DNA of 64,000 nucleotides from an uncultured Bacteroidaceae bacterium. Lineage in GTDB: Bacteria; Bacteroidota; Bacteroidia; Bacteroidales; Bacteroidaceae. The stretch covers positions 41,334 through 105,333 of the forward strand of contig CAYTPX010000001.1 of assembly GCA_964439955.1 (NCBI GenBank). The letters are read 5' to 3'. A program made the translations under genes and the position numbers. The first letter of the stretch is position 1, and each line of letters opens with the position of its first letter. Below are positions 1,048 through 62,795 of the stretch, piece after piece. Below the pieces are notes generated by a model. The model was not told the origin of the DNA, made no database searches, and worked only from the letters and a program-made list of their open reading frames with translations.

Positions 1048-1140
1048 AGGGAAAAGGGCTAAGGGTTTCGGGAAAAAGGGGCAAGGCTTCCGGGGAAAAG
1101 TGCCGCCGTTTCCCGCGGGAAGCGGCAGCGTTCCCCCTCC
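1048..1140. repeat. GGAAA..TTTCC palindromic intergenic repeat cluster (approximate bounds)
   Basis: gggaaaagggctaagggtttcgggaaaaaggggcaaggcttccggggaaaagtgccgccgtttcccgcggg; shares GGCAAGGCTTCC and AAAGTGCCGCC..TTTCCCGC modules with 8192-8254 and other loci. Confidence 0.7.
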
Positions 1141-1156
1141 GGGGCGGGCAAGGGCG

Positions 1157-2125
1157 TCAGCGGCGGAACTTGCGCGCCACGCGGTCGTAGGCGGGGGTTT
1201 CCACGCCGTGCGCCCGCGCCGCGTCAATCAGGTCGAAGAGTTGTCCTTGGATCTCCGACTCATGTCCGCGGGCCAAGTCCTTCTGTAGCGAAGCAGTGCT
1301 GGCCGAGTCGAGCGCGTCGATGACGCGGAGGTTGGCTTCCACCGGGTCTTCGCGGAAGGTGATGCCCATCTTCTCGCCCAAGGCGCTACTCTCGCGGGTA
1401 AGGGCCACGAAGGTATCGCGCTCGGGGCCCGGGCGTTGGAGCGCGCCCATGGGCACGTCGTAATAAGCCCCGGTGCAGGCCATGGCGCTGATGAAGCCCC
1501 ATTTTGCGAACGTGTCCCGCACGATGTCGTCGGAAAGCACGGCCTTGATGCCAGCCGCCCGCAACGTTTCCCGCAGCAACTCCAGTTCCCCGCGCCGCAC
1601 GCCGTCGCCCTCGCGCGCACCGAACACCAGCCGGAGCACCGGCCCCATCTGCGTGATTTCCCCGGGAGCATTGACGAAACCCACGATATAGATGCACCCG
1701 TCGATGACGCGCGCCCCGGGACAGGCGCGGGCGATGCGGGAGCCCGTGCCAAACACGTTGAGCACGGGCAGGACAATGCTGTCGGGTCGTGCGGCACGGG
1801 TGATGCACCCGGCCACGCCAGCCACGGAATAACCTTTCACGCAGACCAGCACCAGGTCGGCCGTCCCACGGTAGTCGTCGGCCGTACAGGCGGCCAGGAA
1901 GGGGGCGCCCGGCGTCTCCCCGCCCGCAGGGCGCGGCTCCTGTCCGGGCGCATATACGGGCAAGACGACCTCGCCCTTCAAGTCGGAGTGGAACTTGAGC
2001 CCGCTGTCGAGCATGCGGCGCAGGTGCTCGCCGCGGGCTATGCAGCATACTTCATGGCCGGCCAGCGCCAGGAATGCGGCCAACGAGCCGCCCACGCCGC
2101 CGGTGCCTACGATGAGACATTTCAT
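1157..2125 (-). CDS. panE: 2-dehydropantoate 2-reductase (ApbA/PanE family)
   Basis: ORF 1157..2224 trimmed to ATG at 2125 (MKCLIVGTGGVGGSLAAFLALAGHEV, N-terminal Rossmann GxGxxG); the discarded N-terminal part lies in the repeat-filled spacer. Confidence 0.8.
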   Translation of the reverse strand: MKCLIVGTGGVGGSLAAFLALAGHEVCCIARGEHLRRMLDSGLKFHSDLKGEVVLPVYAPGQEPRPAGGETPGAPFLAACTADDYRGTADLVLVCVKGYSVAGVAGCITRAARPDSIVLPVLNVFGTGSRIARACPGARVIDGCIYIVGFVNAPGEITQMGPVLRLVFGAREGDGVRRGELELLRETLRAAGIKAVLSDDIVRDTFAKWGFISAMACTGAYYDVPMGALQRPGPERDTFVALTRESSALGEKMGITFREDPVEANLRVIDALDSASTASLQKDLARGHESEIQGQLFDLIDAARAHGVETPAYDRVARKFRR

Positions 2126-2144
2126 AACGTACGGTATTTTTGAG

Positions 2145-2215
2145 GAAAACGTGCGGCGCTTTTTCCGAAAACCTCCGGCACTTTTGTACCAAAGTGCCGC
2201 CTGCTTTCGCCCGGT
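2145..2215. repeat. palindromic intergenic repeat cluster
   Basis: cgctttttccgaaaacctccggcacttttgtaccaaagtgccgcctgctttcgcc. Confidence 0.6.
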
Positions 2216-2241
2216 GCGCCGCATCCCGGGGCGGGAGGGGG

Positions 2242-3345
2242 CTACACGTTGAAACGGAAGTGCATGATGTCGCCGTCCTGAACGACATAGTCCTTCCCCT
2301 CGATGGCCAACTTCCCGGCCTCACGCACGGCGGCTTCCGAACCGTAGCGGATGAAGTCGTCGTATTTGATGACCTCCGCGCGGATGAAGCCCTTCTCGAA
2401 GTCGGAATGGATGATGCCCGCGCACTGCGGGGCCTTGCTGCCCTTGCGGTACGTCCAAGCCTTCACTTCCATCTCTCCGGCCGTGAAATACGTCTCAAGT
2501 TGCAGCAGTCGGAAGGCCGACTTGATGAGCCGGTTGACGCCCGACTCCTGCAAGCCGACGGACTCGAGGAACATTTTCCGGTCTTCATACGTGTCCAGCT
2601 CGGCTATGTCTTCCTCCGTCTTGGCAGCCACCACAAGCACCTCGGCCTCTTCACCGGCGACCGCCGCGCGCACCGCCTCGACATATTGGTTCCCGTCCAC
2701 GGCCGAAGCCTCGTCCACGTTGCATACGTACAAAACAGGCTTGTTGGTCAGCAGGAAAAGGCCGTGCGCTATTTGCTGTTGCTCCTTGCTTTCCCACCGC
2801 ACCGTCCGCGCGGGGCGGCCTTGGGACAGCGCTTCGCGGTAGGCCTCCAGCACCTCGCACGCGGCGCGCGCCTCCTTGTCGCCGCCCGTCTCGGCCTGTT
2901 TCCTGACGCGCTGGAGGCGGCCCTCCACGGTCTCAAGGTCTTTCAGCTGGAGCTCCGTGTCGATGATTTCCTTGTCCCGCACCGGATCGACACGGCCATC
3001 GACATGTACGACATTGCCATCGTCGAAACAACGGAGCACATGGATGATCGCGTCCGTTTCCCTTATGTTTGCCAAGAACTTGTTGCCGAGGCCTTCGCCT
3101 TGGCTCGCCCCTTTCACCAAGCCCGCTATGTCTACTATCTCAACCGTGGCCGGTACGACGCGGCCGGGATGGACTATCGCGGCCAAGCGCCCGAGCCTTT
3201 CGTCGGGGACGTTGATGACGCCCACGTTAGGCTCAATGGTACAGAAAGGAAAGTTGGCCGATTGCGCCTTTGCGCTCGACAAACAGTTGAAAAGGGTGGA
3301 CTTCCCCACGTTGGGCAGCCCGACTATTCCGCATTGGAGGCTCAT
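2242..3345 (-). CDS. ychF: ribosome-binding ATPase YchF (OLA1 family)
   Basis: ORF 2242..3645 trimmed to ATG at 3345: MSLQCGIVGLPNVGKSTLFN (P-loop), 367 aa, C-terminal ...DGDIMHFRFNV typical of YchF. Confidence 0.93.
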   Translation of the reverse strand: MSLQCGIVGLPNVGKSTLFNCLSSAKAQSANFPFCTIEPNVGVINVPDERLGRLAAIVHPGRVVPATVEIVDIAGLVKGASQGEGLGNKFLANIRETDAIIHVLRCFDDGNVVHVDGRVDPVRDKEIIDTELQLKDLETVEGRLQRVRKQAETGGDKEARAACEVLEAYREALSQGRPARTVRWESKEQQQIAHGLFLLTNKPVLYVCNVDEASAVDGNQYVEAVRAAVAGEEAEVLVVAAKTEEDIAELDTYEDRKMFLESVGLQESGVNRLIKSAFRLLQLETYFTAGEMEVKAWTYRKGSKAPQCAGIIHSDFEKGFIRAEVIKYDDFIRYGSEAAVREAGKLAIEGKDYVVQDGDIMHFRFNV

Positions 3346-3414: not shown

Positions 3415-3510
3415 GGCGAAACCCCTTGCCGCTTTTCGCGAAAAGCGGCAAGGCTTTTGCAGGGAAACGCACGCGCTTCCCGCGGAAAGGGGCGGCACTT
3501 CCCCCAAGGA
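3415..3510. repeat. palindromic intergenic repeat cluster
   Basis: ccttgccgcttttcgcgaaaagcggcaaggcttttgcagggaaacgcacgcgcttcccgcggaaaggggcggcacttcccc. Confidence 0.7.
3424..3453. terminator. perfect 30-nt palindrome, probable bidirectional terminator between the nuclease gene and the ychF promoter
   Basis: CCTTGCCGCTTTTCG/CGAAAAGCGGCAAGG, 15-bp perfect arms, T-rich on both flanks; built from two inverted repeat modules. Confidence 0.45.
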
Positions 3511-3541
3511 GGCGTGCCCCCCGGAGGCCAGCCCCGGGACG

Positions 3542-3566
3542 CCGGGGAAGGCGGCGGAGGGGCTCA
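3542..3566. repeat. left copy of short direct repeat flanking the MTase-nuclease cassette
   Basis: ccggggaaggcggcggaggggctca; compare 6223-6239 gcgggggaaggggctca; in both copies the final tca is the stop codon (TGA) of a minus-strand gene. Confidence 0.4.
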
Positions 3567-4688: not shown

Positions 4689-4724
4689 GGGACTGCTGCT
4701 TTTTTGGTTTTTCTTACTTACATC

Positions 4725-5765: not shown

Positions 5766-5769
5766 GGGC

Positions 5770-5947
5770 GATTGATAGTCTAAACGCGGCATCGGTGCTA
5801 TCAATCGCCTGCACGCAATAAGAAAAGGGCATGGCCATCTTATTGCGTCCTGCGAGGCAGCCTAGGAATGAAGCCTCTCCACATTTAATAAGCGCCACAC
5901 CCTTATGGGCGTGAGCATAGCTTATTCCAAATGTGGAGAGCATTCCT
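5770..5947 (-). promoter_or_regulatory. structured leader/operator region upstream of the MTase: three consecutive inverted repeats
   Basis: IR1 gattgatag 5770-5778 / ctatcaatc 5798-5806. IR2 gcaataaga 5815-5823 / tcttattgc 5838-5846. IR3 aggaatg+ctctccacattt+aataagc 5864-5893 pairing with gcttatt+aaatgtggagag+cattcct 5920-5947. Confidence 0.4.
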
Positions 5948-6124
5948 GGGCGGAATTCCTTACCTATTATTTTCGGTATCCTTATATCTTTTGCTACAAA
6001 GTTTCCTAGGCTTTTAGCAGAACGCGAAATAATAGCTAATGCTTCGTATGGGTCAATATGTCGTTTGTCTCTCGTTAGTTTACTTCATAGGCAGTGGTTT
6101 CGTGTCCCGCGGCGGGGACGTTTG

Positions 6125-6232
6125 GGGCAAAAGTAGGGAATTTCTGCAAAAAAGTGCCTGCGCTTCCCGGAAAAAGCGCTTGCGCCCCACGGCAAAAGCG
6201 GCAAGGCGGCCGGCAGGGAGGCGCGGGGGAAG
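6125..6232. repeat. palindromic intergenic repeat cluster
   Basis: gcaaaaaagtgcctgcgcttcccggaaaaagcgcttgcgccccacggcaaaagcggcaaggcgg. Confidence 0.65.
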
Positions 6233-6239
6233 GGGCTCA
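6223..6239. repeat. right copy of short direct repeat flanking the cassette
   Basis: gcgggggaaggggctca, ends in the murI stop codon; see 3542-3566. Confidence 0.4.
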
Positions 6240-8191: not shown

Positions 8192-8254
8192 GGTTTTTCC
8201 AAAAAGTGCCGCCGGTTTCCCGCAAAAGGGGCAAGGCTTCCGGAGGAAAGTGCT
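8192..8254. repeat. palindromic intergenic repeat cluster
   Basis: ggtttttccaaaaagtgccgccggtttcccgcaaaaggggcaaggcttccggaggaaagtgc. Confidence 0.7.
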
Positions 8255-13949: not shown

Positions 13950-14012
13950 TGCGCGGAAACCGCCTGCACTTTCGCACGGAAGCGCAGGCGGTTTCCCGCA
14001 AAAACGGCAAGG
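13950..14012. repeat. palindromic intergenic repeat cluster
   Basis: gcggaaaccgcctgcactttcgcacggaagcgcaggcggtttcccgcaaaaacggcaaggctttttt. Confidence 0.7.
13956..13997 (-). terminator. hairpin downstream of patB
   Basis: ggaaaccgcctgc 13956-13968 pairs perfectly with gcaggcggtttcc 13985-13997 (13 bp). Confidence 0.4.
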
Positions 14013-14018
14013 CTTTTT

Positions 14019-15200
14019 TCAGTTTCCGCCCAGTGCCGCGCGCAGCCCGTCCAAGGCTTTGCGCAGGTAGGCACGGGGGCATCCGCAATTAAGCCGCATG
14101 AACCCTTCCCCCTCGCGGCCGAACATCGTGCCGCTGTTGAGCGCCATCCGGGCTTTCGTGCTGAAGAGCCGTTCCAATCCCTGCTGCGGCAAGCCCAAGG
14201 CGCGGCAGTCGAGGAACATCAGGTAGGAGGCCTCGGGCACGACGGGGCGTATGGCGGGCAGGTGCTCGCGGCAGTACTGCTCGACGAAACGGAAGTTGCC
14301 CTCCACGTAGTCCAGCATCTGGACGAGCCAATCCGTGCCGTGGCTGTAGGCCGCCTCGGTGGCAATGGGGCAAAAGAGGTTGCCGCTGGCCAGTTCGTTC
14401 TCGTCGAGGAAGCGGAAGAAAGGCTCACGTAGCTCCGGGTTGGGCACGAAGCAGTGGGCGCTGCCCAGCCCGGGCAGGTTGAAAGCCTTGCTGGGGGCCT
14501 GGAAGGTGAGGGAAATCTGCCGGGCCTCCTCTCCGGTCGAGGCGAAGGGCGTATGCACGCGGGGCTTGAAAGTAAGGTCGGCATGGATTTCATCGGAGCA
14601 TACGAGGACGCCTTCCTCGTGGCATACGGCGGCAATCGTTGCCAGCTCTTCCCGTTTCCACACCATGCCGCCGGGATTGTGCGGGTTGCAGAGGAACAAC
14701 ATGCGGCAGCCCCGTATGTCGTGGCGGAAGCGGCCTTCGTTGAAATGGTAGTGCCCCTCGCCGTCGTAGTCCAGCGCGCTCCATACCACCTGGCGCCCGT
14801 TGTGCGCCGGAAGCAGGTGGAAGGGGTGGTAGACAGGAGGCATGACCATCACTTTCTCGCCCTCCCGCGTGAAGAAAAGCAGGGCCATGGCCAACGCCGG
14901 CACGACGCCGGGCATGAAATGTATCCACTCCCGCTCGACCCGGAAGCCATACCGGTCGCGGTTCCAGCCTATGATGCTCTCGAAATAGGAGTCGCCCTTC
15001 AGGCTGTAGCCCAGCACCTCGTGGTCGAGGCGGCGGCGCAGGGCGTCGATGATGAAGGGGGGCGTCTTGAAGTCCATGTCGGCTATCCAGAAAGGCATCA
15101 GGTCGTTCCGCCCGTAGAAGGGCTCCATCCCGTCCCATTTGATGCAACCCGTGCCCCGGCGCTCCACCGGTGTGTCGAAATCGTACTGTACGTGTTCCAT
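14019..15200 (-). CDS. PLP-dependent aminotransferase, MalY/PatB cystathionine beta-lyase type
   Basis: ORF 14019..15338 trimmed to ATG at 15200 (MEHVQYDFDTPVERRGTGCIKWD); PLP-lysine context QAPSKAFNLPGL. Confidence 0.85.
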   Translation of the reverse strand: MEHVQYDFDTPVERRGTGCIKWDGMEPFYGRNDLMPFWIADMDFKTPPFIIDALRRRLDHEVLGYSLKGDSYFESIIGWNRDRYGFRVEREWIHFMPGVVPALAMALLFFTREGEKVMVMPPVYHPFHLLPAHNGRQVVWSALDYDGEGHYHFNEGRFRHDIRGCRMLFLCNPHNPGGMVWKREELATIAAVCHEEGVLVCSDEIHADLTFKPRVHTPFASTGEEARQISLTFQAPSKAFNLPGLGSAHCFVPNPELREPFFRFLDENELASGNLFCPIATEAAYSHGTDWLVQMLDYVEGNFRFVEQYCREHLPAIRPVVPEASYLMFLDCRALGLPQQGLERLFSTKARMALNSGTMFGREGEGFMRLNCGCPRAYLRKALDGLRAALGGN

Positions 15201-17644: not shown

Positions 17645-17716
17645 TTTCGGGAAAAGCGCCAAGGCTTTTCCCCAAGGGTTCCGGCACTTCCGGGAAAAAG
17701 CGCCGGGACTTTTCCC
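17645..17716. repeat. palindromic intergenic repeat cluster (three tandem modules)
   Basis: ttcgggaaaagcgccaaggcttttccccaagggttccggcacttccgggaaaaagcgccgggacttttcccg. Confidence 0.75.
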
Positions 17717-21554: not shown

Positions 21555-21604
21555 CTGGAAAAAGTTATGCGGCTTCCGGCGGAAAGCCTCGGGGCTTTCC
21601 ACCA
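21555..21604. repeat. palindromic intergenic repeat (short)
   Basis: ctggaaaaagttatgcggcttccggcggaaagcctcggggctttcc. Confidence 0.55.
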
Positions 21605-24185: not shown

Positions 24186-24228
24186 CGCTATAGAATGAGT
24201 TTTTGATTTATGCGCCGATAAACTGGCG

Positions 24229-24236
24229 CAAAGGTA
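24229..24236 (-). promoter_or_regulatory. -7 promoter box (TACCTTTG) for the purH-mreBCD-mrdA-rodA operon
   Basis: Plus caaaggta = minus TACCTTTG, about 44 nt upstream of ATG 24185. Confidence 0.45.
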
Positions 24237-24309
24237 CGAAAAAAAGCATTTCCCCTTGCTGACTTTATCCCCAAAACTATTAGTAAAAAAAGGTGTAAAG
24301 GCAAAACAG

Positions 24310-24525
24310 GGGCGCAGTGCCGCAATGGGAAAAGCCTGCCGCAACCGGAAAGGCGGAAGCCTCCGTAACTGTCCTTGCGAGCCCCGGCGTCCGGAAAGGC
24401 TGGAAGCCGCGGCTTCACGGGGCATCCCCCTACCCTCCCTTCCTGCAAGAGTCTTCCCGGAAGCCCCCGCACTTCCCCAAAATCCCTGCAGGGCTTTTCC
24501 CAAAAAGTGCCGCAGGGATTCACAC
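24310..24525. repeat. palindromic intergenic repeat cluster (long)
   Basis: gggaaaagcctgccgcaaccggaaaggcggaagcc ... cccggaagcccccgcacttccccaaaatccctgcagggcttttcccaaaaagtgccgcaggg. Confidence 0.7.
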
Positions 24526-24542
24526 GAGCCCTCGCAGGAAAT

Positions 24543-26489: not shown

Positions 26490-26635
26490 CGTCCCCCGCC
26501 CGGAAAAGGCACAAGGCTTCCGGGGCAAGGCGCAGGCATTTCCCATAAGAAGCGCCTGCACTTCCCGCGGGAATCCCCGCAGCTTTCCCCTCCCGGGTAC
26601 GCCGCCCCGCCCGGCACGGGGCAAGGCGGGAAAAG
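26490..26635. repeat. palindromic intergenic repeat cluster
   Basis: cccggaaaaggcacaaggcttccggggcaaggcgcaggcatttccc ... agcgcctgcacttcccgcggg. Confidence 0.65.
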
Positions 26636-29639: not shown

Positions 29640-29880
29640 TTCCCGCCGCCCCGCGCAGGCAGACAAGACAAGCAAGGCTTCCGCCCGCTGGGCGGAAGCC
29701 TTGCCGTTTATACCTACGGCAGAAGCAGCATGGAGCGCCGCCGGTTTCCCGGAATTGTGCCCGCACTTTTCCCGGAAAGGGACAACCCTTTCCCGCAAGA
29801 CGCCCGCCGGAGGGACGGGAAGATGCCGACCGGCCACGCCCCGCGGCGGGGCTTCCGCAAGGCCGACGGCCGGGGGAAGG
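29640..29880. repeat. palindromic intergenic repeat cluster (long)
   Basis: gcaaggcttccgcccgctgggcggaagccttgcc ... ccggtttcccggaattgtgcccgcacttttcccggaaaggg. Confidence 0.7.
29672..29710 (+). terminator. hairpin terminator after korB
   Basis: gcaaggcttccgccc 29672-29686 / gggcggaagccttgc 29690-29704, 15-bp perfect stem, 3-nt loop, followed by cgttta. Confidence 0.55.
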
Positions 29881-31710: not shown

Positions 31711-34344
31711 ATGGCAAAAGACATCGTCCTGACCCCCATGATGAAACAATACTTTGAGCTGAAGGAGAAACATCCCGACGCGCTCATGCTGTTTCGCTGT
31801 GGAGATTTCTACGAAACCTATTCCGACGATGCCGTCGTGGCTGCCGAAATACTCGGCATCACCCTCACGCGAAGGGGAAACGGGAAAGGGAAAACCATCG
31901 AAATGGCAGGATTCCCCCACCATGCCCTCGACACTTACCTGCCCAAGCTCATACGTGCCGGACGTAGAGTGGCTATCTGCGACCAGTTGGAAGACCCGAA
32001 ACTCACCAAAAAACTCGTCAAACGCGGGATAACCGAGCTCGTCACCCCGGGAGTTGCCATGAACGACACCGTGCTGAGCTACAAAGAAAACAATTTCCTC
32101 TGCGCCGTCAGTTTCGGGAACAGCAAGCCCCAAGGGTTATGCGGCATTGCACTGCTCGACATCTCCACCGGGGAATTCCTCCTCTCGGAGGGAAAGGAAG
32201 AGTACATAGAGAAGCTGCTTGGCAATTTCAGCCCCAAAGAAATCCTGCTCATGCGCGGCACACTGCCACGCTTCAAAGCCACTTTCGGCCACGGGAAGCA
32301 GCCTTTTACCTATGAACTGGAAGATTGGGCCTTCAACGAAAGCTCGGCCCGAGAACGATTGCTGAAGCACTTCGAGACAAAAAACCTGAAGGGGTTCGGT
32401 GTGGAATGCCTCCGCTTAGGGCAAACCGCCGCCGGAGCTATCCTGCACTACCTCGACATTACGCAACACACGCAGACCAAACACATATTGGCCTTGCGCC
32501 GCATCGAAGAAGAACGCTTCGTCCGGCTCGACCGCTTCACCACCCGTAGCCTGGAGCTCACGGAAAGCATGAGCGGCGAGGGGAAAAGCCTGCTGGACAT
32601 CATCGACCACACGGACAGCCCCATGGGAGCCCGGCTCTTGCGCCGCTGGATACTCTTCCCGCTGAAGGAGAAAAGGGAAATCGACGCCCGCCTCGACGGG
32701 GTAGAACACTTCTTCCGTCATCCGCAGGAGCATGAGGTCCTCAGGCAACACCTGCAGCAAGTGGGCGACATGGAACGCATCCTGTCGAAAACCGCCACCG
32801 GGCGCGTCTCCCCGCGCGAGCTGAACCAGCTGAAGACGGCGCTCCAATGCGTACAAGCCATCAAAGCCATCTGCACGGAAGCCGGCAACGAGACCCTGCA
32901 CACGCTGGGGGAAAAACTGGACGACTGCGCCACCCTGCGCGAGTCCATCGCCCGCACCCTGCGCGAAGACCCGCCCGCCGTAAGCGGACGGCCCAATACC
33001 ATACGCGACGGGGTCAACGCCGAACTCGACGAACTGAGGCACATTGCCTACGAAGGCAAGGACTACCTGCTCCGGATACAGCAGCGCGAGAGCGAAACGA
33101 CCGGCATACCTTCGCTGAAGGTAGCCTACAACAACGTGTTCGGCTACTACATCGAGGTGCGCAACACGCATAAAGACAAAGTGCCCGCCGAATGGATACG
33201 CCGCCAGACGCTGGTCAATGCCGAACGGTACATCACCCCGGAACTAAAAGAATACGAAGAAAAAATACTGGGCGCAGAGGAAAAGATACTATCCATCGAG
33301 ACCCAAATCTACAACCAACTCGTCGCCGAGGTGGCCGGAGGCATCCCGCAGATGCAAACCGACGCCCTCGCACTGGCCCGCCTCGACTGCCTCTGCTCTT
33401 TCGCCACCACCGCCAAGGAACGGCACTACGTGCGCCCCGTCGTCGCCGACGACAACCTGCTCACCATACGCCAAGGAAGGCATCCCGTCATCGAAGCCCA
33501 AATGCCCGCCGGCGAGCGTTACGTGGCCAACGACGTGGAACTTAGCGGGAACAAACAGCAGATCCTCATCATAACCGGCCCCAATATGGCCGGGAAGTCC
33601 GCCCTCCTCCGCCAAACGGCACTCATCACCCTGCTGGCCCAAGCGGGCAGTTTCGTGCCCGCCGAGAGCGCGCACATAGGAACCGTGGACAAGATATTCA
33701 CCCGCGTAGGCGCCAGCGACAATATCTCTGCCGGAGAATCCACCTTCATGGTAGAAATGAGCGAAGCGGCTAATATCCTAAACAACGTCACGCCGCGCAG
33801 CCTCGTACTATTCGACGAGCTCGGGCGCGGTACCTCCACCTACGACGGCATTTCCATTGCATGGGCCATCGTAGAGTACCTCCACGAAAAAGAACAGGCA
33901 CAGGCCCGTACCCTTTTCGCCACGCACTACCACGAACTGAACGAGATGGAAAAAAGCTTCCCCCGCATCCGCAACTACAACGTCTCGGTGCGGGAGGTGG
34001 ACAACAAGGTCGTTTTCCTGCGCAAGCTCATCCCCGGCGGCAGCGAGCACTCGTTCGGCATCCACGTGGCCAAGCTCGCCGGCATGCCGCGCAGCATCGT
34101 ACAGCGCGCGGAACGCATCCTCAAGCAACTGGAAAGCGGCTCCGGAGGGAAGGACGCGGGGAAAAACATAAAAAACGTGGCCGAAAACGCCGGAAGGGGC
34201 ATGCAGCTCAGTTTCTTCCAGCTGGACGACCCGGTGCTCTCCCAAGTGCGCGACGAGATACTCACCTTGGACGTAGACAACCTAACCCCCATCGAGGCGC
34301 TCAACAAGTTGAACGAAATAAAAAAAATAGTACGGGGAAAATGA
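31711..34344 (+). CDS. mutS: DNA mismatch repair protein MutS
   Basis: 877 aa; N-terminal [28 protein letters not shown], Walker A GPNMAGKS. Confidence 0.95.
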
Positions 34345-34346
34345 AA

Positions 34347-34405
34347 AAGCACCCGCCGCTTTTCCCCGGAAGTGCCTGCACTTTCCCTTAAAAGCGGCAC
34401 AGGTT
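34347..34405. repeat. palindromic intergenic repeat
   Basis: ccgccgcttttccccggaagtgcctgcactttcccttaaaagcggcac. Confidence 0.65.
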
Positions 34406-36979: not shown

Positions 36980-37090
36980 GCGGGAAGCCCGCGGCAAACG
37001 GGGGAAAGGCACGGCGCTTTCCCGGGAAAAGGGAAGGGCTTCCTGGAAAAAGAGGCAAGGCAAAAGCTCGCCGGCGGAAGGGCAAAAAAG
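36968..37090. repeat. palindromic intergenic repeat cluster
   Basis: ggggaaaggcacggcgctttcccgggaaaagggaagggcttcctggaaaaagaggcaaggc. Confidence 0.65.
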
Positions 37091-39244: not shown

Positions 39245-39358
39245 GAAGCAGCAAAAAGGAAGTGTTTCCCACGGGCATCTACACAAAAAGCCTTGCCGCT
39301 TTCTCCGGAAAGCGGCAAGGGAAACGGGAAAAAACGGCAAGGCTTTTGCGGGAAAGCC
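39245..39358. repeat. palindromic intergenic repeat cluster
   Basis: ccttgccgctttctccggaaagcggcaagggaaacgggaaaaaacggcaaggcttttgcgggaaagcc. Confidence 0.7.
39291..39320 (-). terminator. hairpin downstream of folA
   Basis: ccttgccgctttc 39291-39303 / gaaagcggcaagg 39308-39320, 13-bp perfect stem, 4-nt loop. Confidence 0.45.
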
Positions 39359-43120: not shown

Positions 43121-43192
43121 GCCTTCCCGGGAAAAGGCCGGGCGTTTTTCCCGGAAAGCCTTGGCACTTCCCCCTGGAAACGCCAAGGCTTT
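43121..43192. repeat. palindromic intergenic repeat cluster
   Basis: cttcccgggaaaaggccgggcgtttttcccggaaagccttggcacttccccctggaaacgccaaggctttt. Confidence 0.7.
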
Positions 43193-44707
43193 TCACTCCC
43201 CGTTGAGGCGGAGTATCTCGTCGATGTACGTGCGGTCGTTGCATAGGCGCGGCACCTTGTGCTGCCCGCCCAGCTTCCCTTTCTGTGCCAGCCAGTCGTG
43301 GAAGAGGTTTTCCCTAGCCACCACGATTTCCGGCATCTGCAGGGCAATGTCCTTCCAGCGCTTGGCTTCGTAGTCGGAGTTCAACTCCTTGAGGGAAGCG
43401 TCGAGCACGGAAGCGAAGTGCGCCACGCTGTCGGGCATCCGCGCGAACTCAATGACCCACTGGTGCCGGCATTTCGCCCGGCTGTCCATGAAGACCGGCG
43501 CAGCGGTGTAGTCCGCTACCAGCGCGCCGCAGGCGCTGCAGGCGCGCGCCAAGGCCTTGTCGGCGTTATCCACCACGAGTTCCTCGCCGAAGGCATTGAT
43601 GAAATGCTTCGTCCGGCCGGAGATTACGAATTTCCACGGGGCCTTCGAGGTGAAGCGCACCGTGTCGCCGATGAGGTAGCGCCACAGTCCCGCGCAGTTG
43701 TTCAGCACCAAGGCGTAATTCTTCCCTATCTCCACGCCGGAGAGCGGCACGGTACGCGGGTTTTCCGAGCCGAATTCGTCCATCGGGAGGAACTCGTAAA
43801 ACATCCCGTAGTCCACCATCAGCAACATTGCCGGGTCGCCCGGGTCATCCTGCACGCCGAAAAAGCCCTCGCTCGCGTTGTAAGTCTCCATGTAGTGCAT
43901 GTCTTCCTTCCGGATCACCTGCCGGTATTGCTCGCGGTAGGGCGTGAAAGCCACGCCACCATGGAAGAAAACCTCCAGGTTGGGCCATACTTCCTCGAGC
44001 CCTTCCTTGCCCGTCTTGTGCAGGATATGCTTGATGAGCACCAAGAACCACGAGGGCACGCCGCTCAAGTTGGTCACGTTGGCCGGGATTACCGCGTCGG
44101 CCATCACGCGGAGCTTGGACTCCCACTCGCCCATGAGGGCTATTTCCTTCGAAGGCACCCGGATGAGATTGACCAACGGGGGGATGTTTTCCATCAAGAT
44201 GGCCGAGAGGTCGCCCACCAGGCTGTGGGGCGTGTTCAGGTTCGGGCTGTGGCTGCCGCCCAATATCAGCCCCTTGCCGTCGAAAAAGCGGCTACGCGGG
44301 TTCACCTTATGCAAGTACAAGGCAACGCAGTCCTGCCCCCCGCGGTAGTGTATCGTCCGCAACGCGTCGGCCGTCACGGGCAGGTATTTGCTCTTGTCGT
44401 TCGTCGTGCCGCTCGATTTGGCAAACCACTTCGTGCGGCCCGGCCAGAGGATGTCACTCCCGCCTTGGCGCACGCGCTCCACGTAGCCTTTCACTTCCTC
44501 GTACGTCTGCAAGGGCACGCGGCGGCAATACTCCTCATAGCTGCGGATCTCGCCATAGCCGTAGGTGCGGCCCCACTCCGTGTTGCGCGCACGGTGGAGC
44601 AATGAGCGGAAAGCGGCCTCCTGCAAGGCCTCCGACTCCGTGGCATAACGGTCGATGGCATGGACGCGGCTTTTAAAAAAAGGGGATATCAAGGGGGTTA
44701 TTTTCAT
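43193..44707 (-). CDS. GH3 auxin-responsive-promoter family protein (acyl-adenylate-forming enzyme fold)
   Basis: ORF 43193..45079 trimmed to ATG 44707 (MKITPLISPFFKSRVHAIDRY...); 504 aa, full-length resemblance to Bacteroidota GH3-family proteins (from memory). Confidence 0.85.
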   Translation of the reverse strand: MKITPLISPFFKSRVHAIDRYATESEALQEAAFRSLLHRARNTEWGRTYGYGEIRSYEEYCRRVPLQTYEEVKGYVERVRQGGSDILWPGRTKWFAKSSGTTNDKSKYLPVTADALRTIHYRGGQDCVALYLHKVNPRSRFFDGKGLILGGSHSPNLNTPHSLVGDLSAILMENIPPLVNLIRVPSKEIALMGEWESKLRVMADAVIPANVTNLSGVPSWFLVLIKHILHKTGKEGLEEVWPNLEVFFHGGVAFTPYREQYRQVIRKEDMHYMETYNASEGFFGVQDDPGDPAMLLMVDYGMFYEFLPMDEFGSENPRTVPLSGVEIGKNYALVLNNCAGLWRYLIGDTVRFTSKAPWKFVISGRTKHFINAFGEELVVDNADKALARACSACGALVADYTAAPVFMDSRAKCRHQWVIEFARMPDSVAHFASVLDASLKELNSDYEAKRWKDIALQMPEIVVARENLFHDWLAQKGKLGGQHKVPRLCNDRTYIDEILRLNGE

Positions 44708-44714: not shown

Positions 44715-45025
44715 TTCCTTTCCGACCGGAAGCCTCCCCAAGGCAGCACAGCAAGGCCTGCCCGGGGAAACGGTCCAGTCCGGCGCAAAATTACCTCTAT
44801 TTTCCAGAACAACCGCCCGCCAAGGCTCTTTTTCGCCGCAGGAAGGGAAAATAGCCCACCGGCGTGGCAAAAAATAAACGCCGGCCGCCCGGAAGAGCCG
44901 CACGAGGCCTCCCTCTCCGCTCCGCACCCGCCGGGAAAAAGCCCTGTCGGCCTTCCCGGAAAGCCTTGCGGGTTTCCCAAAAAAGGGCTGCCGCCCTTTC
45001 CCGGAAACGCAGGAAGGGGAAATGG
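44715..45025. repeat. palindromic intergenic repeat cluster (long; clearest copies 44925-45025)
   Basis: ccgggaaaaagccctgtcggccttcccggaaagccttgcgggtttcccaaaaaagggctgccgccctttcccggaaacgc. Confidence 0.65.
44786..44793 (-). promoter_or_regulatory. -7 promoter box (TAATTTTG) for the GH3-family gene
   Basis: Plus caaaatta = minus TAATTTTG, about 79 nt upstream of ATG 44707. Confidence 0.4.
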
Positions 45026-48834: not shown

Positions 48835-49005
48835 ACAGAAAGCACAAAGGCTTTTCCCAAGGAACAGCAAAAGAAACAGGCAAAAGGCAAGCCCCTTCCC
48901 GGCAACAGGGCAACGGGAAAAAGGGCGGTAGCAGGCAACGACGGGAGAAACAAATGCAAAGGAGACGGAAAAACGGCAGTTTCAGGCGGAAAAAGCGGGC
49001 GGTAT
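48835..49005. repeat. degenerate, A-rich copies of the intergenic repeat
   Basis: cacaaaggcttttcccaagg ... ggcaaaaggcaagccccttcccggc ... cgggaaaaagggcgg. Confidence 0.45.
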
Positions 49006-53676: not shown

Positions 53677-53760
53677 TGCTCGAAGCGGGACTCGAACCCG
53701 CACAGCTGCAATAGCCAAGGGATTTTAAGTCCCTCGTGTCTACCATTCCACCATTCGAGC
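53677..53760 (-). tRNA. tRNA-Leu (anticodon TAA), class II with long variable arm
   Basis: Minus strand GCTCGAA...TTCGAGC+A acceptor; anticodon arm AGGGA-CTTAAAA-TCCCT; T-loop GGTTCGAGTCC. Confidence 0.9.
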
Positions 53761-53764
53761 GTGA

Positions 53765-53882
53765 AACCCTTCCGCTTCCCGGCCGTAAGCCTACGCCTTT
53801 CCACCGAAAGGTGAAGCCGTGCGGGGAGAAAGCCTTGGCACTTTTATCCCAAAGCGCCCGCACTTTTTCCAGAAAGCGGCAG
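53765..53882. repeat. palindromic intergenic repeat cluster
   Basis: gggagaaagccttggcacttttatcccaaagcgcccgcactttttccagaaagcggcagc. Confidence 0.65.
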
Positions 53883-53979
53883 CAAAGATAGGGATATTCC
53901 ACGAGACGGCAAAACACAAAGCGCACTCCTTCGCACAGAAAAGGCACTGCAAGATAGAAAAAAGGAAAGCGGGAGAGGC

Positions 53980-57082: not shown

Positions 57083-57236
57083 AGGAAAAGACCCTTGCAA
57101 GGGAAATGCAACCCTCCTGCCTGGAAATGCCTGCGCTTTCCCCGAAAAAAGGCGGCACTTTTCCACAAAAGCGCCCCGCCTTTTCCAAACGGAATCCGCA
57201 AGAAGCCCTCAGGACAAGGCATAGGAAAAGGGGCTT
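57083..57236. repeat. palindromic intergenic repeat cluster
   Basis: ctggaaatgcctgcgctttccccgaaaaaaggcggcacttttccacaaaagcgccccgccttttcc. Confidence 0.65.
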
Positions 57237-58462: not shown

Positions 58463-59424
58463 AAGAAATGGTTTGTTCCTTTTATAAATCGCTGTTTTTT
58501 TGCAAAGTCTTCCACCAAACATACCTCGCCGAAGCCCGCCTCACACAGCAGCCTCTCGACCTGGGCTGCCAAGAGGGGATTGATTTCCAGGTAGATTTTT
58601 CCTCCTTCGACGAGGCGTTCCCTCCCAATCCGGCATAGGGCGCGGTACGGGAGTAGCGGGTCGGTAGCCGGCACGAACAGGGCTTCACGCGGCTCCCACC
58701 TGCTGACTTCGGGCTGCATGTCTGCCTCCTCCGAAGGGAGCACGTAGGGCGGATTGCTCACAAGGGCGGCATATTGCACGCGTTCCGCCCCGGGATTTGC
58801 CGGGAAGCGCCCCGTGTCTTCCGGGAAAGTGCCTGCGTTTTCCTCCGCGGGCGTCCCGGCTTCTTGCCGGGGCATCCCGCCCAACCGGGCCTCGTGCAGC
58901 ATGTCGCACCGGCGAAAGCATACCTGCGCGCCGTGGCGGGCAGCGTTTTCGCGAGCCACCTGCAGGGCCGTTTCCGAAATGTCCCACGCCTCCACGCGGG
59001 CGGCGGGAAAGAGCTTGGCCATCGTCACAGCAATACATCCGGATCCCGTGCCCACATCCAACAAGTTGGGACGCCCCCCGGTAGCGGGCAGGCCGTCGGC
59101 GGCCAGCATTTCCACCAACTGCTCCGTCTCGGGACGCGGTATCAGCACACCGGGACGCACGTGGAAAGCACGGTCGCAGAACGTGGCTTCGCCCAAGACA
59201 TACTGTACCGGTTCGCGCAAATCCAACAGGCGGTGCAGGAAACCGGCAAGGCGGCGGCGTTCGTCCGCCGACAAATCGCTATCTTTGCCCGTAAAAACCG
59301 CCGCGACACCCCACCCCATCCCCCGGGAAAGCAGCAACCGTGCCACGGCCGAGGCTTCGCCTGGGGAATAAATCGCAGAGAGATGATGGGAAACGTCGTG
59401 CAGTAATGTACGCGAAATGCTCAT
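58456..59424 (-). CDS. prmC: release factor glutamine N5-methyltransferase PrmC (HemK) with internal insertion
   Basis: 322 aa; LDVGTGSGCIA (SAM motif), LVSNPPYV (NPPY); extra segment ...GMPRQEAGTPAEENAGTFPEDTGRFPANPGAE... upstream of NPPY. Confidence 0.88.
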   Translation of the reverse strand: MSISRTLLHDVSHHLSAIYSPGEASAVARLLLSRGMGWGVAAVFTGKDSDLSADERRRLAGFLHRLLDLREPVQYVLGEATFCDRAFHVRPGVLIPRPETEQLVEMLAADGLPATGGRPNLLDVGTGSGCIAVTMAKLFPAARVEAWDISETALQVARENAARHGAQVCFRRCDMLHEARLGGMPRQEAGTPAEENAGTFPEDTGRFPANPGAERVQYAALVSNPPYVLPSEEADMQPEVSRWEPREALFVPATDPLLPYRALCRIGRERLVEGGKIYLEINPLLAAQVERLLCEAGFGEVCLVEDFAKKQRFIKGTNHFLC

Positions 59425-59500: not shown

Positions 59501-60643
59501 ATGGACGCAAGAGACGAACTTTACATGCGCCGCTGCCTGCAACTGGCAGCCGCAGGAATCCCCACCACGAAGCCCAACCCCGTGGTCGGGGCAGTAGTGG
59601 TTTTTGGAGACCGCATCATAGGCGAGGGCTACCACATACGCCCCGGCGAAGGGCATGCCGAGGTGAACGCCCTGCGGAGCGTGCGCCCCGAGGACGAACG
59701 GCTGCTGCCCGGCGCCACCCTCTACGTGAGCCTTGAGCCGTGTGCGCACTACGGGAAGACGCCGCCCTGCGCCGACCTCATCGTAAGGAAGCGGCTGAAA
59801 CGGTGCGTGGTAGGCTGCGGCGACCCCTTTCCCGCGGTCAATGGGGGCGGGATACGCAAGCTGCGCGAGGCGGGCATCGAGGTGGAAACGGGCGTGCTGG
59901 AGGCGGAATGCCGGCGAATCAATGCGCCTTTCTTCACCTACCATCTGCGGAAACGCCCGTATGTCACGCTGAAATGGGCCGAAAGCGCCGACCATTTCAT
60001 CGACACCGCCCGCCCCCTGCCCGGACGCCCCGGCGGAAGCGGGCAAGCCACACGCATCTCCACACCGCTCACACAGATGCTGGCCCACAAACTGAGGGCG
60101 GAAAACCAGGCAATCCTCGTGGGGAGGCGCACCGTGCTGCTCGACAATCCGGCACTCACCCTGCGCCACTGGCCGGGAAGCAACCCGCTGCGTTGCATCT
60201 TGGCGCCATCCGGAGGGATATCGGGGGAAGCGCACGTGGCTGACGGCAGCACGCCGACGCTCATCTTCGCCTGCACAACGACGGAAAACCGCCAGCACTT
60301 TCCCGGAAAAGCGGCAGCGGAAACACTCCCAAGCGGCGGCGTTCCTTTCCCTCCCGAGCACGCCACGCTGAAGGCCACCCGCCCCATCCTGCCACAAGTG
60401 ATGGAGGAACTACACCAGAGGGGCATACAATCGCTTCTCGTGGAGGGCGGTTCGACCACGTTGCAGGGCTTCATTGACGCCGACCTGTGGGACGAAGCCT
60501 ACGTGGAGTGCGGCACATTTTCCCTCGGGCAGGGCGTGCCTGCTCCCGTGCTCCCAAGCCCGGGCAGCAAACGCCCCTACCGGAGCGAGGCGGAATACGC
60601 CTTCGGGCGGACGCGGCTGCATCACTTTCGCCTGCGCGACTAA
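59501..60643 (+). CDS. ribD: bifunctional riboflavin biosynthesis deaminase/reductase RibD
   Basis: 380 aa; deaminase zinc motifs HAEVNAL and PCAHYGKTPPC; C-terminal reductase domain ...LLVEGGSTTLQGF. Confidence 0.92.
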   Translation: MDARDELYMRRCLQLAAAGIPTTKPNPVVGAVVVFGDRIIGEGYHIRPGEGHAEVNALRSVRPEDERLLPGATLYVSLEPCAHYGKTPPCADLIVRKRLKRCVVGCGDPFPAVNGGGIRKLREAGIEVETGVLEAECRRINAPFFTYHLRKRPYVTLKWAESADHFIDTARPLPGRPGGSGQATRISTPLTQMLAHKLRAENQAILVGRRTVLLDNPALTLRHWPGSNPLRCILAPSGGISGEAHVADGSTPTLIFACTTTENRQHFPGKAAAETLPSGGVPFPPEHATLKATRPILPQVMEELHQRGIQSLLVEGGSTTLQGFIDADLWDEAYVECGTFSLGQGVPAPVLPSPGSKRPYRSEAEYAFGRTRLHHFRLRD

Positions 60644-60758
60644 GCAGGAATCCCCCATGGCCGGACGTTCCGCCGCGGCCATGGGGGAAAAATTACGGCG
60701 CGACCCTATGGAGTCGCGCCGTAAATACTATGGTTAAATCCCTAAATATACGGTAGGA

Positions 60759-62366
60759 TTAAAGCTGCGGGCCTGCGGCAACCAATGCCTTGCCAGCTTC
60801 GTTCCCGGTGAACTTCGTAAAGTTCTTGATGAAACGCCCAGCAAGATCCTTGGCTTTCTCTTCCCATTGCGCAGCGTCGGCATACGTGTCACGCGGATCG
60901 AGGATAGCGGAATCTACGCCCGGCAACTCGGTCGGGACTACGAAGGAGAAGTAAGGAATCGTCTTGGTCGGGGCCTTATCGATAGAGCCATCGAGGATGG
61001 CGTCGATAATGCCGCGCGTATCCTTGATAGAGATGCGTTTCCCGGTACCGTTCCAGCCTGTATTTACCAAATATGCCTTGGCTCCTACGCGTTCCATCTT
61101 CTTAACCAGCTCTTCGGCGTACTTCGTCGGGTGCAAGCTCAAGAAGGCTGCGCCGAAACATGCGGAGAAAGTCGGGGTAGGCTCGGTGATTCCACGCTCA
61201 GTGCCGGCGAGTTTCGCTGTAAAGCCGGACAAAAAGTAATATTTCGTCTGTTCTGCGTTCAAAACCGAAACGGGAGGCAACACTCCGAAGGCATCGGCTG
61301 ACAAGAAGATTACCTGATGTGCGTGCGGGCCTTTCGAGATTGGCTTAACAATGTTCTTGATATGGTCAATAGGATAGGACACACGGGTATTTTCGGTAAC
61401 GCTCTTGTCGGCGAAGTCAATCTTCCCGTTTGCGTCTACCGTAACATTCTCCAAGAGGGCATCGCGGCAGATAGCATTGTAGATGTCCGGTTCGCTTTCC
61501 TTGTCGAGGTTGATAACCTTAGCGTAGCATCCCCCTTCGTAGTTGAACACGCCTTCGTCGTCCCAGCCATGCTCGTCGTCGCCGATGAGCAAGCGTTTCG
61601 GGTCGGTGGAGAGGGTGGTCTTGCCGGTTCCGGAGAGGCCGAAGAAGATAGCCGTATCCGTCCCTTCCATGTTGGTATTGGCCGAGCAGTGCATGGATGC
61701 GATGCCGCGCAACGGGTTCAGGTAGTTCATGATGGAGAAGATGCCCTTCTTCATCTCACCGCCGTACCAGGTATTGAGGATAACCTGCTCATTGGTCTTG
61801 AGGTTGAACACGGTGGCCGTCTCGGAATTCAAGCCGAGTTCCTTGTAATTGTCCACCTTGGCTTTTGCCGCGTTGAAGGACACGAAGTCAGGCTCACCGT
61901 AGCTTTCGAGTTCTTCCGCAGTGGGGCGGATGAACATGTTCGTCACAAAATGGGCTTGCCATGCCACTTCCATGATGAAGCGCACCTTCAAGCGGGTAGC
62001 GGGGTTGGCGCCGCAGAACGTATCCACCACGAAAAGGCGCTTCCCGGAGAGCTGCTCCACGGCTTTTGCCTTGAGGTCGGCCCATGCTTCCTCCGAGCAA
62101 GGCTTGTTGTCATTCTTATATTCGTCAGAAGTCCACCAGATCGTGTCCTTGCTGGCCTCGTTCATCACAAAGAATTTGTCCTTAGGAGAACGACCCGTGT
62201 AAATACCCGTCATCACGTTTACTGCGCCAAGTTCAGTAACTTGGCCTGCTTCATAGCCCTCGAGGCTGGACTTGGTCTCTTCTTCGAAGAGTACTTCGTA
62301 AGAAGGATTGTGCAGGATTTCGGTCACACCGGTGATGCCGTACTTGCTTAAATCTAAGTTTGCCAT
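60759..62366 (-). CDS. pckA: phosphoenolpyruvate carboxykinase (ATP)
   Basis: 535 aa; kinase-1a [19 protein letters not shown]. Confidence 0.95.
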
Positions 62367-62497
62367 TGCTTTGTATTTATAAAAAGTGAATAATTGTACT
62401 GTTCAAAGGACTAAATCATGCTTGCGTCGTTATCTTTCTATGCGGTACACGCTTCAAAAAGAGGAAGCGCATTCATATGCCCCTTGTATATCGCGTA

Positions 62498-62505
62498 CAA
62501 AGATA
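62498..62505 (-). promoter_or_regulatory. -7 promoter box (TATCTTTG) for pckA
   Basis: Plus caaagata = minus TATCTTTG, about 130 nt upstream of ATG 62366 (long low-GC leader). Confidence 0.45.
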
Positions 62506-62619
62506 CGGCAATATTTTCAAGGGGGAAACGCACAACAAGGAAAATTTTTCCTAACGGGCTTCCTTTTTATAGTTACATAACAAATCGTTTGCCCGTTCCC
62601 CGCTTACGGAGGAGCAGCC

Positions 62620-62795
62620 CTGCGCCGACCGAGGCGACCGGAAGCGGAGGCGGCGGAAAGTGCCGGGGCTTTTCCCGGACAGCCCCGGCACTTTCCCGCA
62701 AAAACCTCTCCGCTTTCCGACGGCCGGCGGGACGCGTTGGAAAGGGAGGGGACGCAACTTTTCGGGGAAAGCCGGGGTTATTCCGCCCGTTTCCC
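62620..62795. repeat. palindromic intergenic repeat cluster containing a 15-bp perfect inverted repeat
   Basis: ggaaagtgccggggc 62655-62669 / gccccggcactttcc 62682-62696; context ggcggaaagtgccggggcttttcccggacagccccggcactttcccgcaaaaacctctccgctttcc. Confidence 0.75.

Follow-up and report, generated by a model that had tools for sequence, protein, structure and literature searches.

The window analysed here is a stretch of 64,000 nucleotides from the genome of an uncultured Bacteroidales bacterium of the bird gut (G000, 97.7% complete), and the public runs found for this organism are bird-metagenome DNA only. As seen in Table 1, short arrays of a palindromic repeat lie in spacers next to genes such as ychF, a panE-like gene and tRNA-Leu, and also within prmC and ribD. 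The window holds 23 arrays, an array being at least two units in the strict count.

Table 1. Repeat arrays in the window and their state in relatives (G003 and G004, sister species; G001, a species of the same genus)
Position	Strand	Feature	Setting	Relatives
1050..1137	.	4-unit array; PWM matches of 16-22 bits, spaced exactly 22 bp	operon-internal spacer, upstream ORF / panE-like gene	orthologous arrays in G003 and G004 differ in unit number; array-free G001 spacer ~25 nt
2144..2209	.	3-unit array	between ychF stop and panE-like start	spacer 116 nt in G000, 16 nt in G001; G003 +22 nt
3417..3504	.	4-unit array; perfect inverted pair CCTTGCCGCTTTTCGCGAAAAGCGGCAAGG	just upstream of ychF promoter box	
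6148..6213	.	3-unit array	adjoins stop of gene 6237-7058	
8200..8243	.	2-unit array		G003 +44 nt
13954..14019	.	3-unit array; inverted neighbour pair	abuts stop codon	G003 +90 nt, G004 -26 nt
17650..17715	.	3-unit array		colinear arrays in G003 and G004
21558..21601	.	2-unit array (PWM)		
24457..24500	.	2-unit array	spacer also includes position 24310	
26502..26589	.	4-unit array	3' of stop codon	G003: four near-identical direct units
29729..29794	.	3-unit array	downstream of classical terminator hairpin	
34343..34387	.	2-unit array		colinear with G004, equal length; G003 +23 nt via duplicated unit
37002..37045	.	2-unit array	convergent spacer	
39284..39349	.	array with perfect inverted pair		G003 +45 nt
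43130..43195	.	3-unit array (PWM)		
44935..45000	.	3-unit array	divergent spacer, upstream of promoter box	
48836..48901	.	degenerate array (PWM)		
53826..53869	.	2-unit array	between predicted -7 box and tRNA-Leu	
57121..57186	.	3-unit array (PWM)		
58775..58890	-	in-frame degenerate array, ~5 units	prmC; ~29-33 extra residues	present in G003, G004; absent from G001, G002, G005, G018
60284..60352	+	in-frame array (GGAAAACCGCCAGCACTTTCCCGGAAAAGCGGCAGCGGAAAC...)	ribD, RibD reductase domain; ~18 extra residues	present in G003, G004; absent from G001, G005, G018; G002 ribD match only partial
62654..62720	.	3 strong units incl. perfect inverted pair	divergent spacer, just upstream of + strand gene	

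The repeat unit is 22 bp long. Its position weight matrix (PWM; 22 columns, 16.2 bits) has the consensus GGRAAAG-N8-CTTTYCC with a GC-rich 8-nt core, and the unit is equally describable as two 11-bp half-units that are inverted relative to each other. The distance between adjacent PWM matches is exactly 22 bp in 601 of about 690 cases, 21 bp in 57 and 23 bp in 21. By regular expression, GGAAA-to-GGAAA distances peak at 22, 44 and 66 nt, and peaks are also found for GAAA-N(10-12)-TTTC and TTTC-N(2-4)-GAAA, in each case in spacers only. The TTTC-to-GAAA junction varies in length (N2, 101; N3, 119; N4, 68). Units abut at 22 bp with no linker motif apart from the units themselves, and neighbouring units follow in random order of orientation (391 the same, 408 opposite). 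Three recurrent module types, as had been proposed from the sequence alone, can be recognised: AAAGCCTTGCCGCTTT (n=36), AAAGCGGCGGCACTTT (n=26) and the GCGCAGGCAC type (n=17). Otherwise the units are degenerate, with very variable cores, and only the purine and pyrimidine runs are fixed. The exact phasing, the alternately inverted half-units and the gain and loss of whole units described below go beyond that sequence-only reading.

Across the genome, 330 intergenic arrays were found in real spacers against 1-2 in shuffled ones. PWM matches reach 4.2 per kb in spacers, compared with 1.0 in coding DNA and about 0.67 in dinucleotide-shuffled spacers. An untrained pattern (RAAR-N10-YTTY-N4, twice) gave 205 matches and its reversed control 1; TRF reported 51 period-22 arrays in the whole genome. 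No arrays were present in 80 other Bacteroidales loci (1.3 Mb), including loci at 55-63% GC. The claim of a genuine, abundant and lineage-specific family of palindromic intergenic repeats, more frequent than base composition predicts, is thus borne out by the shuffled controls. Its details fared unevenly. Of the 22 loci that had been named in the window, 19-20 were recovered, 18 of them with an array no more than about 90 nt from the given start; for 24310 and 44715 the spacer does hold an array, 150-220 nt beyond the given position. At 10961 a recognisably similar sequence scores below threshold, and 16405 shows two weak out-of-phase matches only. Arrays in the window contain at most 4-5 units, not up to about ten, and genome-wide the strict arrays account for 6.6% of intergenic bp rather than most of it and are present in 36% of spacers 100 bp or longer. 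About 20-25 more arrays lie inside well-scoring ORFs.

The modules had been described as small stem-loops that might act as terminators or 3' stabilisers. The invariant A and T runs can indeed pair, and folding is predicted at about -9.5 kcal/mol per unit (mean z -2.5 against shuffles). The pairing rests on the runs only: Watson-Crick pairing does not exceed the column-shuffled expectation in 11 of 11 pairs, in the unit and junction registers alike, so covariation is absent from both. An RNA-level role, in which hairpin stacks 3' of genes stop transcription from either side or shield 3' ends from exonucleases like the REPs of E. coli, would fit the resemblance of the unit to a miniature bidirectional terminator (A run, GC core, T run) and the position of arrays in tandem spacers, where the median distance is 28 nt to the stop codon and 100 nt to the next start. 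A hairpin with a T-run was found within the array in 22 of 55 array-bearing convergent spacers and in 30 of 187 tandem ones; array-bearing convergent spacers tend to have classical terminators elsewhere less often (16% versus 28%), a difference that is not significant. Against such a role, arrays show no orientation bias relative to transcription, and no spacer type is preferred: divergent spacers, upstream of both promoters, are about as dense (0.99 arrays per kb) as convergent (1.16) and tandem ones (1.25). Arrays also occur inside operons where the spacer of a congener measures 16 nt, and classical terminators share spacers with arrays, as at 29636-29945. These observations weaken the proposed terminator and stabiliser functions, and we consider an RNA-level role quite unlikely.

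Comparison with relatives indicates how the arrays change. In the two sister species, at about 80% nucleotide identity, arrays stand at orthologous sites. In 22 of the 38 comparisons of orthologous spacers, the lengths agree to within 3 nt; the remaining differences cluster at approximately 22, 44, 66 and 88-93 nt. The arrays predate the split of the three species, were inherited vertically at the same spacers, and have changed by gain or loss of whole 22-bp units. In G003, direct neighbours are near-identical at 26481 and 34345, and the four such units at the first of these sites (Table 1) indicate local tandem duplication. In the congener G001, the pattern has 0 matches and the orthologous spacers are just 16-25 nt long. 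To judge from the pair of 16 nt against 116 nt, the arrays are additional DNA rather than a rebuilt functional site. Among the genomes surveyed (301 in the family, 251 in the order), array bursts are lineage-specific and patchy. Arrays of identical 22-bp period with different cores exist in other genera and across the order, including families unrelated in sequence such as TTTCGTCCGCAGACGAAA+4 and TTTTCCTGGTCAGAGAAA+4.

Within orthologous arrays, core identity (0.61/0.66) is close to that of 4-fold degenerate sites (0.62/0.64); unit cores drift at the synonymous, neutral rate. The A/T runs are somewhat more conserved (0.75/0.72, with 0.71/0.75 in other spacer DNA), which could reflect selection, although the alignment of periodic sequence inflates this value. 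Such selection is the basis of a second alternative, in which arrays are loading sites for a putative host DNA-binding or architectural protein, and phasing and runs are kept because of it. Candidates would be a filament-forming nucleoid, partition-type or insulator protein touching the DNA once per two helical turns. The phasing is rigid at 22 bp although cores vary widely, the alternately inverted half-units look like dimers lined up along one side of the helix, the period is common to unrelated units in other genera, and arrays end at promoter boxes. Moreover, the junction TTTCCCGGGAAA matches the core sequence bound by Noc in Bacillus. A comparable period is known from plasmid iterons (R6K, pPS10), contiguous repeats in which a spacing of 22 bp, or two helical turns, keeps the bound proteins on the same side of the double helix; iterons, however, are well-conserved direct repeats bound by Rep at one replication origin, whereas the units here are degenerate, palindromic and scattered over hundreds of chromosomal spacers. 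Several observations oppose protein sites: a species of the same genus does without arrays in its very short spacers, cores drift neutrally, in-frame arrays are tolerated within enzymes, and a rigid dimer site would not permit the 2-4 nt variation between TTTC and GAAA. We regard this alternative as unlikely. A specific site of the Noc/ParB type (NBS/parS) is not supported, since the spacing varies from N2 to N4 where a fixed 14-16-bp palindrome with a TTTCCCGGGAAA core, bound by a ParB-family dimer, would be expected.

A mobile origin must also be considered. In general form the arrays recall the REP and BIME repeats of Enterobacteriaceae and Pseudomonas, with palindromic units (20-40 bp) that number in the hundreds, extragenic mosaics with both orientations, lineage specificity and occasional intragenic copies. 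To this extent the earlier label of a REP-like family was apt, and its precedents (REP/BIME, Correia and RPE elements) lie in the right neighbourhood. The label fails in other respects: the arrays have no RAYT, no GTAG or CGTC tag in the PWM consensus and far more degenerate units, their hairpin has no covariation support, their strict phasing lacks linker motifs, and neighbour orientation is random rather than alternating as in BIMEs. The proposed link to a RAYT transposase was not supported. The Y1 transposase domain (PF01797, Y1_Tnp) has no match in G000, G003, G004, G018 or G011, while control genomes match, and in the family it matches 3 of 17 array-rich versus 3 of 10 array-poor genomes. 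Spread of REPs by RAYT is largely refuted by its absence from the array-rich genomes G000, G003 and G004. REP families that lack a dedicated transposase (CGTC-tagged) and intragenic REPs are nevertheless documented (Di Nocera et al. 2013, PMC3733652), and some inverted doublets here resemble REPINs.

MITEs mobilised in trans by an IS transposase are the other form of this explanation. The model is BrickBuilt of Porphyromonas gingivalis, a minisatellite-MITE present in about 19 copies (Klein et al. 2015, PMC4596501). Its 23-nt unit (AGAYCATARTATCCTCTCRTRTG) is well conserved and not palindromic, and the element carries a leader, a tail and terminal inverted repeats like those of an IS. Both systems belong to the order Bacteroidales and consist of intergenic tandem bricks of about 22-23 nt in variable copy number. 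Unlike BrickBuilt, the present arrays are palindromic, degenerate, short and number in the hundreds. In the flanks of 244 arrays of at least three units, no terminal inverted repeats and no conserved leader, tail or flanking sequence were found; information there is no higher than 0.17 bit per position and reflects only a weakening trace of the 22-bp composition. Additionally, near-identical copies are not shared between loci: the best 2-unit identity was 33.4 of 44, against 33.2 under a re-paired-unit null, so recent block copying of several units between loci is not seen. The Rfam look-up suggested earlier returned no relevant family, with tRNAs only at gathering threshold and nothing else relevant at E<=1 over positions 1-45200. 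Although the units are short, palindromic, abundant and extragenic, a classical REP/REPIN or MITE origin is highly improbable.

The two in-frame arrays are confined to the three array-bearing species among the genomes compared. In prmC, the insert splits the PrmC methyltransferase domain ahead of the NPPY motif. These inserts recall the Rickettsia palindromic elements (RPEs) that Ogata et al. reportedly described in 2000, which are said to lie in frame in protein genes and to add a peptide that leaves the protein intact. In both systems, palindromic inserts occur in conserved genes and are absent from the orthologues of relatives; RPEs are single elements of 100-150 bp, unlike the 22-bp unit arrays found here. 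Stop codons make up 0.74% of codons in arrays versus 3.1% in spacers overall, and 48% of arrays lack a stop codon in every one of the six frames. Because units almost never contain a stop codon in any frame, surface loops of proteins may also tolerate arrays.

The reading we prefer, to which we give about an even chance, is that the arrays form a near-neutral or selfish, lineage-specific interspersed minisatellite that has no transposase of its own and evolves by slippage. Units would be gained and lost through slippage during replication, unequal exchange and strand switching templated by hairpins, all acting between the invariant runs that flank each unit as direct and inverted repeats. Perfect inverted copies make up 4% of adjacent pairs in G000 compared with 0.2% of random pairs. 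Direct duplicates among adjacent units are rare there and recent block copying is lacking, so it is from the sister species that activity in this genome can be inferred. Slippage alone cannot account for the seeding of hundreds of separate loci, nor does it explain the period shared by sequence-unrelated families in other genera.

Under this minisatellite reading, arrays would survive wherever extra DNA is tolerated, that is, in spacers of every polarity and between a stop codon and the next promoter. Effects on transcripts or DNA shape, for which 3'-end hairpins, insulation of transcription units and bent DNA are candidates, would be a by-product. No description of these arrays was found in the literature, and they behave like an apparently undescribed relative of E. 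coli REP/BIME repeats that lacks a transposase.

The spacers of the source genome (G000; a draft of 2.15 Mb in 70 contigs, 54.8% GC) contain an abundant palindromic repeat, and its description as lineage-specific, vertically inherited, quantised in 22-bp steps and without a RAYT transposase is well supported. In spacers and not in coding DNA, the distance from GAAA to TTTC peaks at 10-12 nt, from TTTC to GAAA at 2-4 nt, and between GGAAA words at 22, 44 and 66 nt. TRF detected 51 period-22 arrays, and fragments of the unit, CCGGGAAAAG, GGCAAGGCTT and AAAAGCGGCA among them, are the 10-mers with the strongest over-representation in spacers, with a rank similar to that of the promoter box. Hard-threshold EM was used because soft EM drifted to a diffuse motif; the resulting 22-column matrix (16.2 bits) gives as consensus GGRAAAG, then 8 GC-rich bases, then CTTTYCC. 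Matches per kb were 4.2 in spacers, 1.0 in coding DNA and about 0.67 in shuffled spacers, and the spacing of adjacent matches is exactly 22 bp 601 times, vs 57 times for 21 bp and 21 times for 23 bp. Phased arrays of at least 2 units number 330 in G000 spacers compared to 1-2 in shuffles, and 1.3 Mb of sequence drawn from 80 other genomes of Bacteroidales, GC-rich ones included, yielded none. An untrained degenerate pattern matched 205 times in G000 vs once for its reversed control. The shuffles, the reversed pattern and the 80 loci from other Bacteroidales, whose GC is similar, rule out a composition artefact of a GC-rich genome.

The window, which lies at C1:41334-105333, holds 23 arrays. 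Of the 22 palindromic intergenic loci named by the sequence-only reading, 19-20 were confirmed; two are weak, and at two others the array is displaced within the same spacer. The three module types proposed there are the commonest core combinations. The extent had been overestimated: up to about ten modules per spacer were described and the maximum in the window is 4-5 units, and in place of nearly every spacer being filled, strict arrays account for 6.6% of spacer DNA and, among spacers of 100 bp or longer, 36% have one.

Only the A run and the T run, both invariant, make up the apparent stem of the unit. Each core is composed of two outward-in 5-mers, nearly a free draw from GTGCC, GCGGC, GCGCC, GCCTT and GCCCC, and the unit can therefore be regarded as two 11-bp half-units in inverted orientation. 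The orientation of adjacent units is random (391 same vs 408 opposite). In the array flanks a residual trace of the period fades out, and neither a conserved leader or tail nor a terminal inverted repeat was found. Genome-wide, CGGGGCGG and similar words are the most frequent 8-mers in these flanks. Very G+C-rich CCGGGGCGGGAGGGGG-type tails are also seen in the window, and could represent either degenerate units or another element, distinct from the arrays.

Array density per kb is the same in convergent (1.16), tandem (1.25) and divergent (0.99) spacers. In tandem spacers, arrays lie a median of 28 nt from the upstream stop codon and 100 nt from the next start, occupying the portion free of promoter and leader; promoter boxes of the Bacteroidetes type, TAnnTTTG, are seen in window spacers. 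Classical terminators were found in 16% of convergent spacers with arrays vs 28% of those without, a difference that is not significant. Predicted RNA folding is about -9.5 kcal/mol per unit (mean z -2.5), owing to the palindromic consensus. Among 1,272 units, complementarity at every symmetric pair did not exceed the expectation from column composition, either within the unit or across the unit junction, and asymmetric core words have no orientation bias relative to transcription. A conserved RNA hairpin was rejected for lack of covariation in either register, of a matching Rfam family and of orientation bias. A hairpin role of the arrays at the transcript level, with which the predicted folding would agree, is quite improbable, and a weaker rival than a protein acting on the DNA. 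For one minus-strand tRNA, the sole promoter-like -7 box upstream sits past an array; the array would therefore be in the tRNA leader, or the true promoter is unrecognised. The window DNA is present in sequencing runs only from bird-gut metagenomes, and when RNA-seq and Term-seq were sought, all matching runs were of DNA.

In Proteobacteria, short interspersed repeats are well studied and are spread by RAYT transposases. To our knowledge, such repeats have hardly been described in Bacteroidales, a dominant gut order, and full-text literature searches gave no description of such 22-bp arrays. Involvement of a RAYT had been suggested for the present family. No match to PF01797 (Y1_Tnp) was obtained in G000, its sister species G003 and G004, or two further genomes (G018, G011), while control genomes matched; in a wider set, Y1_Tnp is present in 3 of 17 array-rich vs 3 of 10 array-poor genomes. 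The suggestion was not borne out: a RAYT-driven REP is ruled out by the absence of the gene, of any tracking with arrays and of a GTAG/CGTC tag. A MITE or BrickBuilt type is ruled out by the absence of terminal inverted repeats or conserved flanks and by the unrelated BrickBuilt unit, and a Noc/ParB-type site by variable junction spacing. In behaviour the arrays are nearest to REP/BIME elements, among them the CGTC class, which lacks a transposase and likewise has copies within genes (PMC3733652), and they also resemble Bacteroidales minisatellites such as BrickBuilt (PMC4596501). The features that define membership in either group are lacking.

Among named relatives, the nearest to G000 by YchF are uncultured Bacteroides/Bacteroidaceae MAGs at no more than 80% identity. 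The congeneric sister species G003 and G004 are closer (YchF 93-94%; proteins 86-90% across the syntenic window part), and their arrays, which differ in core and in number of units, occupy the same spacers. Orthologous spacer lengths differ by at most 3 nt in 22 of 38 comparisons, and the other differences cluster near 22, 44, 66 and 88-93 nt. The panE-ychF spacer is 16 nt in the more distant, array-free congener G001 vs 116 nt in G000, and the arrays are therefore added DNA. Aligned array cores have an identity of 0.61/0.66, the same as 4-fold degenerate sites (0.62/0.64); the values are 0.75/0.72 for runs and 0.71/0.75 for other spacer DNA. Several arrays of G003 consist of near-identical direct units, indicating local tandem duplication. 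Direct duplicates are rare in G000, where perfect inverted copies form 4% of neighbour pairs. A simple tandem-duplication minisatellite in G000 was rejected, since neighbours are alike at 5.9 of 10 positions vs 5.3 for random pairs and direct duplicates occur only in the sister G003; recent block copying between loci was also rejected, as multi-unit block similarity in G000 is not above the null. With 945 pattern matches in G003 and 608 in G004, G000 looks like a decaying member of a clade with richer sisters. Two other differences were observed in the colinear part. A segment coding for a putative nuclease and a putative DNA methyltransferase is kept in G004 and missing in G003, and is therefore a variable cassette, and one array-bearing spacer is enlarged in G004 by about 0.75 kb of apparently coding sequence between the promoter region and the array.

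Copies are also present inside genes. PrmC contains about 29-33 extra residues dividing the methyltransferase domain before the NPPY motif, and RibD about 18 in the reductase domain. Both inserts are coded by recognisable 22-nt-phased units and are present in G000, G003 and G004 and missing in G001, G005 and G018; the PrmC insert is also missing in the lower-GC congener G002, in which the RibD match is cut short. Genome-wide, about 43 arrays lie inside ORFs scoring well as coding on both sides, and about 20-25 of these are convincing, with a non-coding-like array segment. Stop codons are 4-fold fewer in arrays than in general spacers, and nearly half of the arrays are open in all six frames, which explains both why ORF calls come out too long and why arrays are tolerated within genes. 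In the gene with the heaviest invasion seen, three arrays lie in well-scoring coding sequence.

Coordinates of individual features (window positions unless a contig is named)
Feature	Position	Observation
CCGGGGCGGGAGGGGG-type tails	1138-1156, 2210-2241, 3505-3563, 6214-6236	between arrays and minus-strand gene stop codons
Part colinear with G003, G004	1-41800	
Variable segment, ~2.7 kb	3456-6192	~117 bp instead in G003
Genes of variable segment	3564-4688, 4725-5804	
Gene after which cassette is inserted	6237-7058	
Weak loci	10961, 16405	
Loci with displaced array	24310, 44715	
Spacer longer in G004	24186-24542	357 nt in G000, 1102 nt in G004
tRNA, minus strand	53677-53760	
Region upstream of tRNA	53761-53890	contains the array
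Most invaded ORF	C32:6950-12778	1,942 residues; arrays at 8374, 10185, 12283
AAGA...TCTT family of G002	G002:C181 ~11990-12100 (L094)	upstream of ychF promoter
Homogeneous arrays of G116	G116:C43:6429-6512	one example

The favoured explanation is that the arrays are a near-neutral or selfish interspersed minisatellite, because lengths change by whole units, neighbours include direct and inverted duplicates, cores are neutral, and the arrays are indifferent to spacer polarity and strand, present in genes and absent from close relatives. Slippage, unequal exchange and hairpin-templated switching, acting between the invariant runs, would add and remove units. This minisatellite does not account for the seeding of hundreds of sites, for the period shared by unrelated families, or for runs being modestly more conserved, and for these reasons a protein reading two-turn-phased sites is still a live, though rather unlikely, rival.

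The shared period can be observed beyond the clade. Among 301 genomes of 35 genera of the family, scattered lineages are strongly enriched for the A4-N10-T4-N4 doublet, among them 3 of 5 species of the source genus, individual genomes in four further genera, and many species of another, cultured genus, with the unit GAAAAGCTCGGCATCTTTTC and a core close to that of G003. G002 is nearly negative by this strict pattern, which misses its different 22-nt family (AAGA...TCTT); AAGATGCTTACCTTCTTAGG / AAGACTTCAGCATCTTTCGAT units of 22-nt period were seen there at the same place upstream of ychF. In other genera of the family the opposite phase, T-run-N10-A-run-N4, is enriched, as homogeneous units of an 18-bp palindrome plus a 4-nt linker with a 22-bp period (TTTCGTCCGCAGACGAAA, TTTTCCTGGTCAGAGAAA). 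The very homogeneous arrays of these units in G116 and G095, with A/T linkers, were probably active recently; the G116 unit has CGTC...GACG ends, as in CGTC-class REPs. In an order-wide sample of 251 genomes, most equal the control, with sporadic bursts (e.g. 63 vs 1, 82 vs 3).

One broad and quite improbable proposal is that Bacteroidales share a mechanism measuring DNA two helical turns (21-22 bp) at a time, which would create and maintain palindromic arrays from any available sequence; the arrays would mark transcription-unit boundaries. Candidates for the mechanism are a conserved protein, either architectural or of partition-like type, and a process of replication or repair that runs in a 22-bp register. 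Sequence-unrelated families of different genera would then converge on one period, and the GGAAAAG...CTTTTCC bricks of G000 would be one GC-rich dialect.

The arrays represent an unusual bacterial repeat: without a transposase, 22-bp-quantised, with sequence "dialects" in related genera and in frame within housekeeping enzymes. If the arrays prove neutral, they still extend ORF calls, since nearly all their frames are open; they can break assemblies, add variable peptide loops to proteins, and are usable as strain-typing markers. A shared mechanism behind the 22-bp step, if true, would add something new to the chromosome biology of Bacteroidales.
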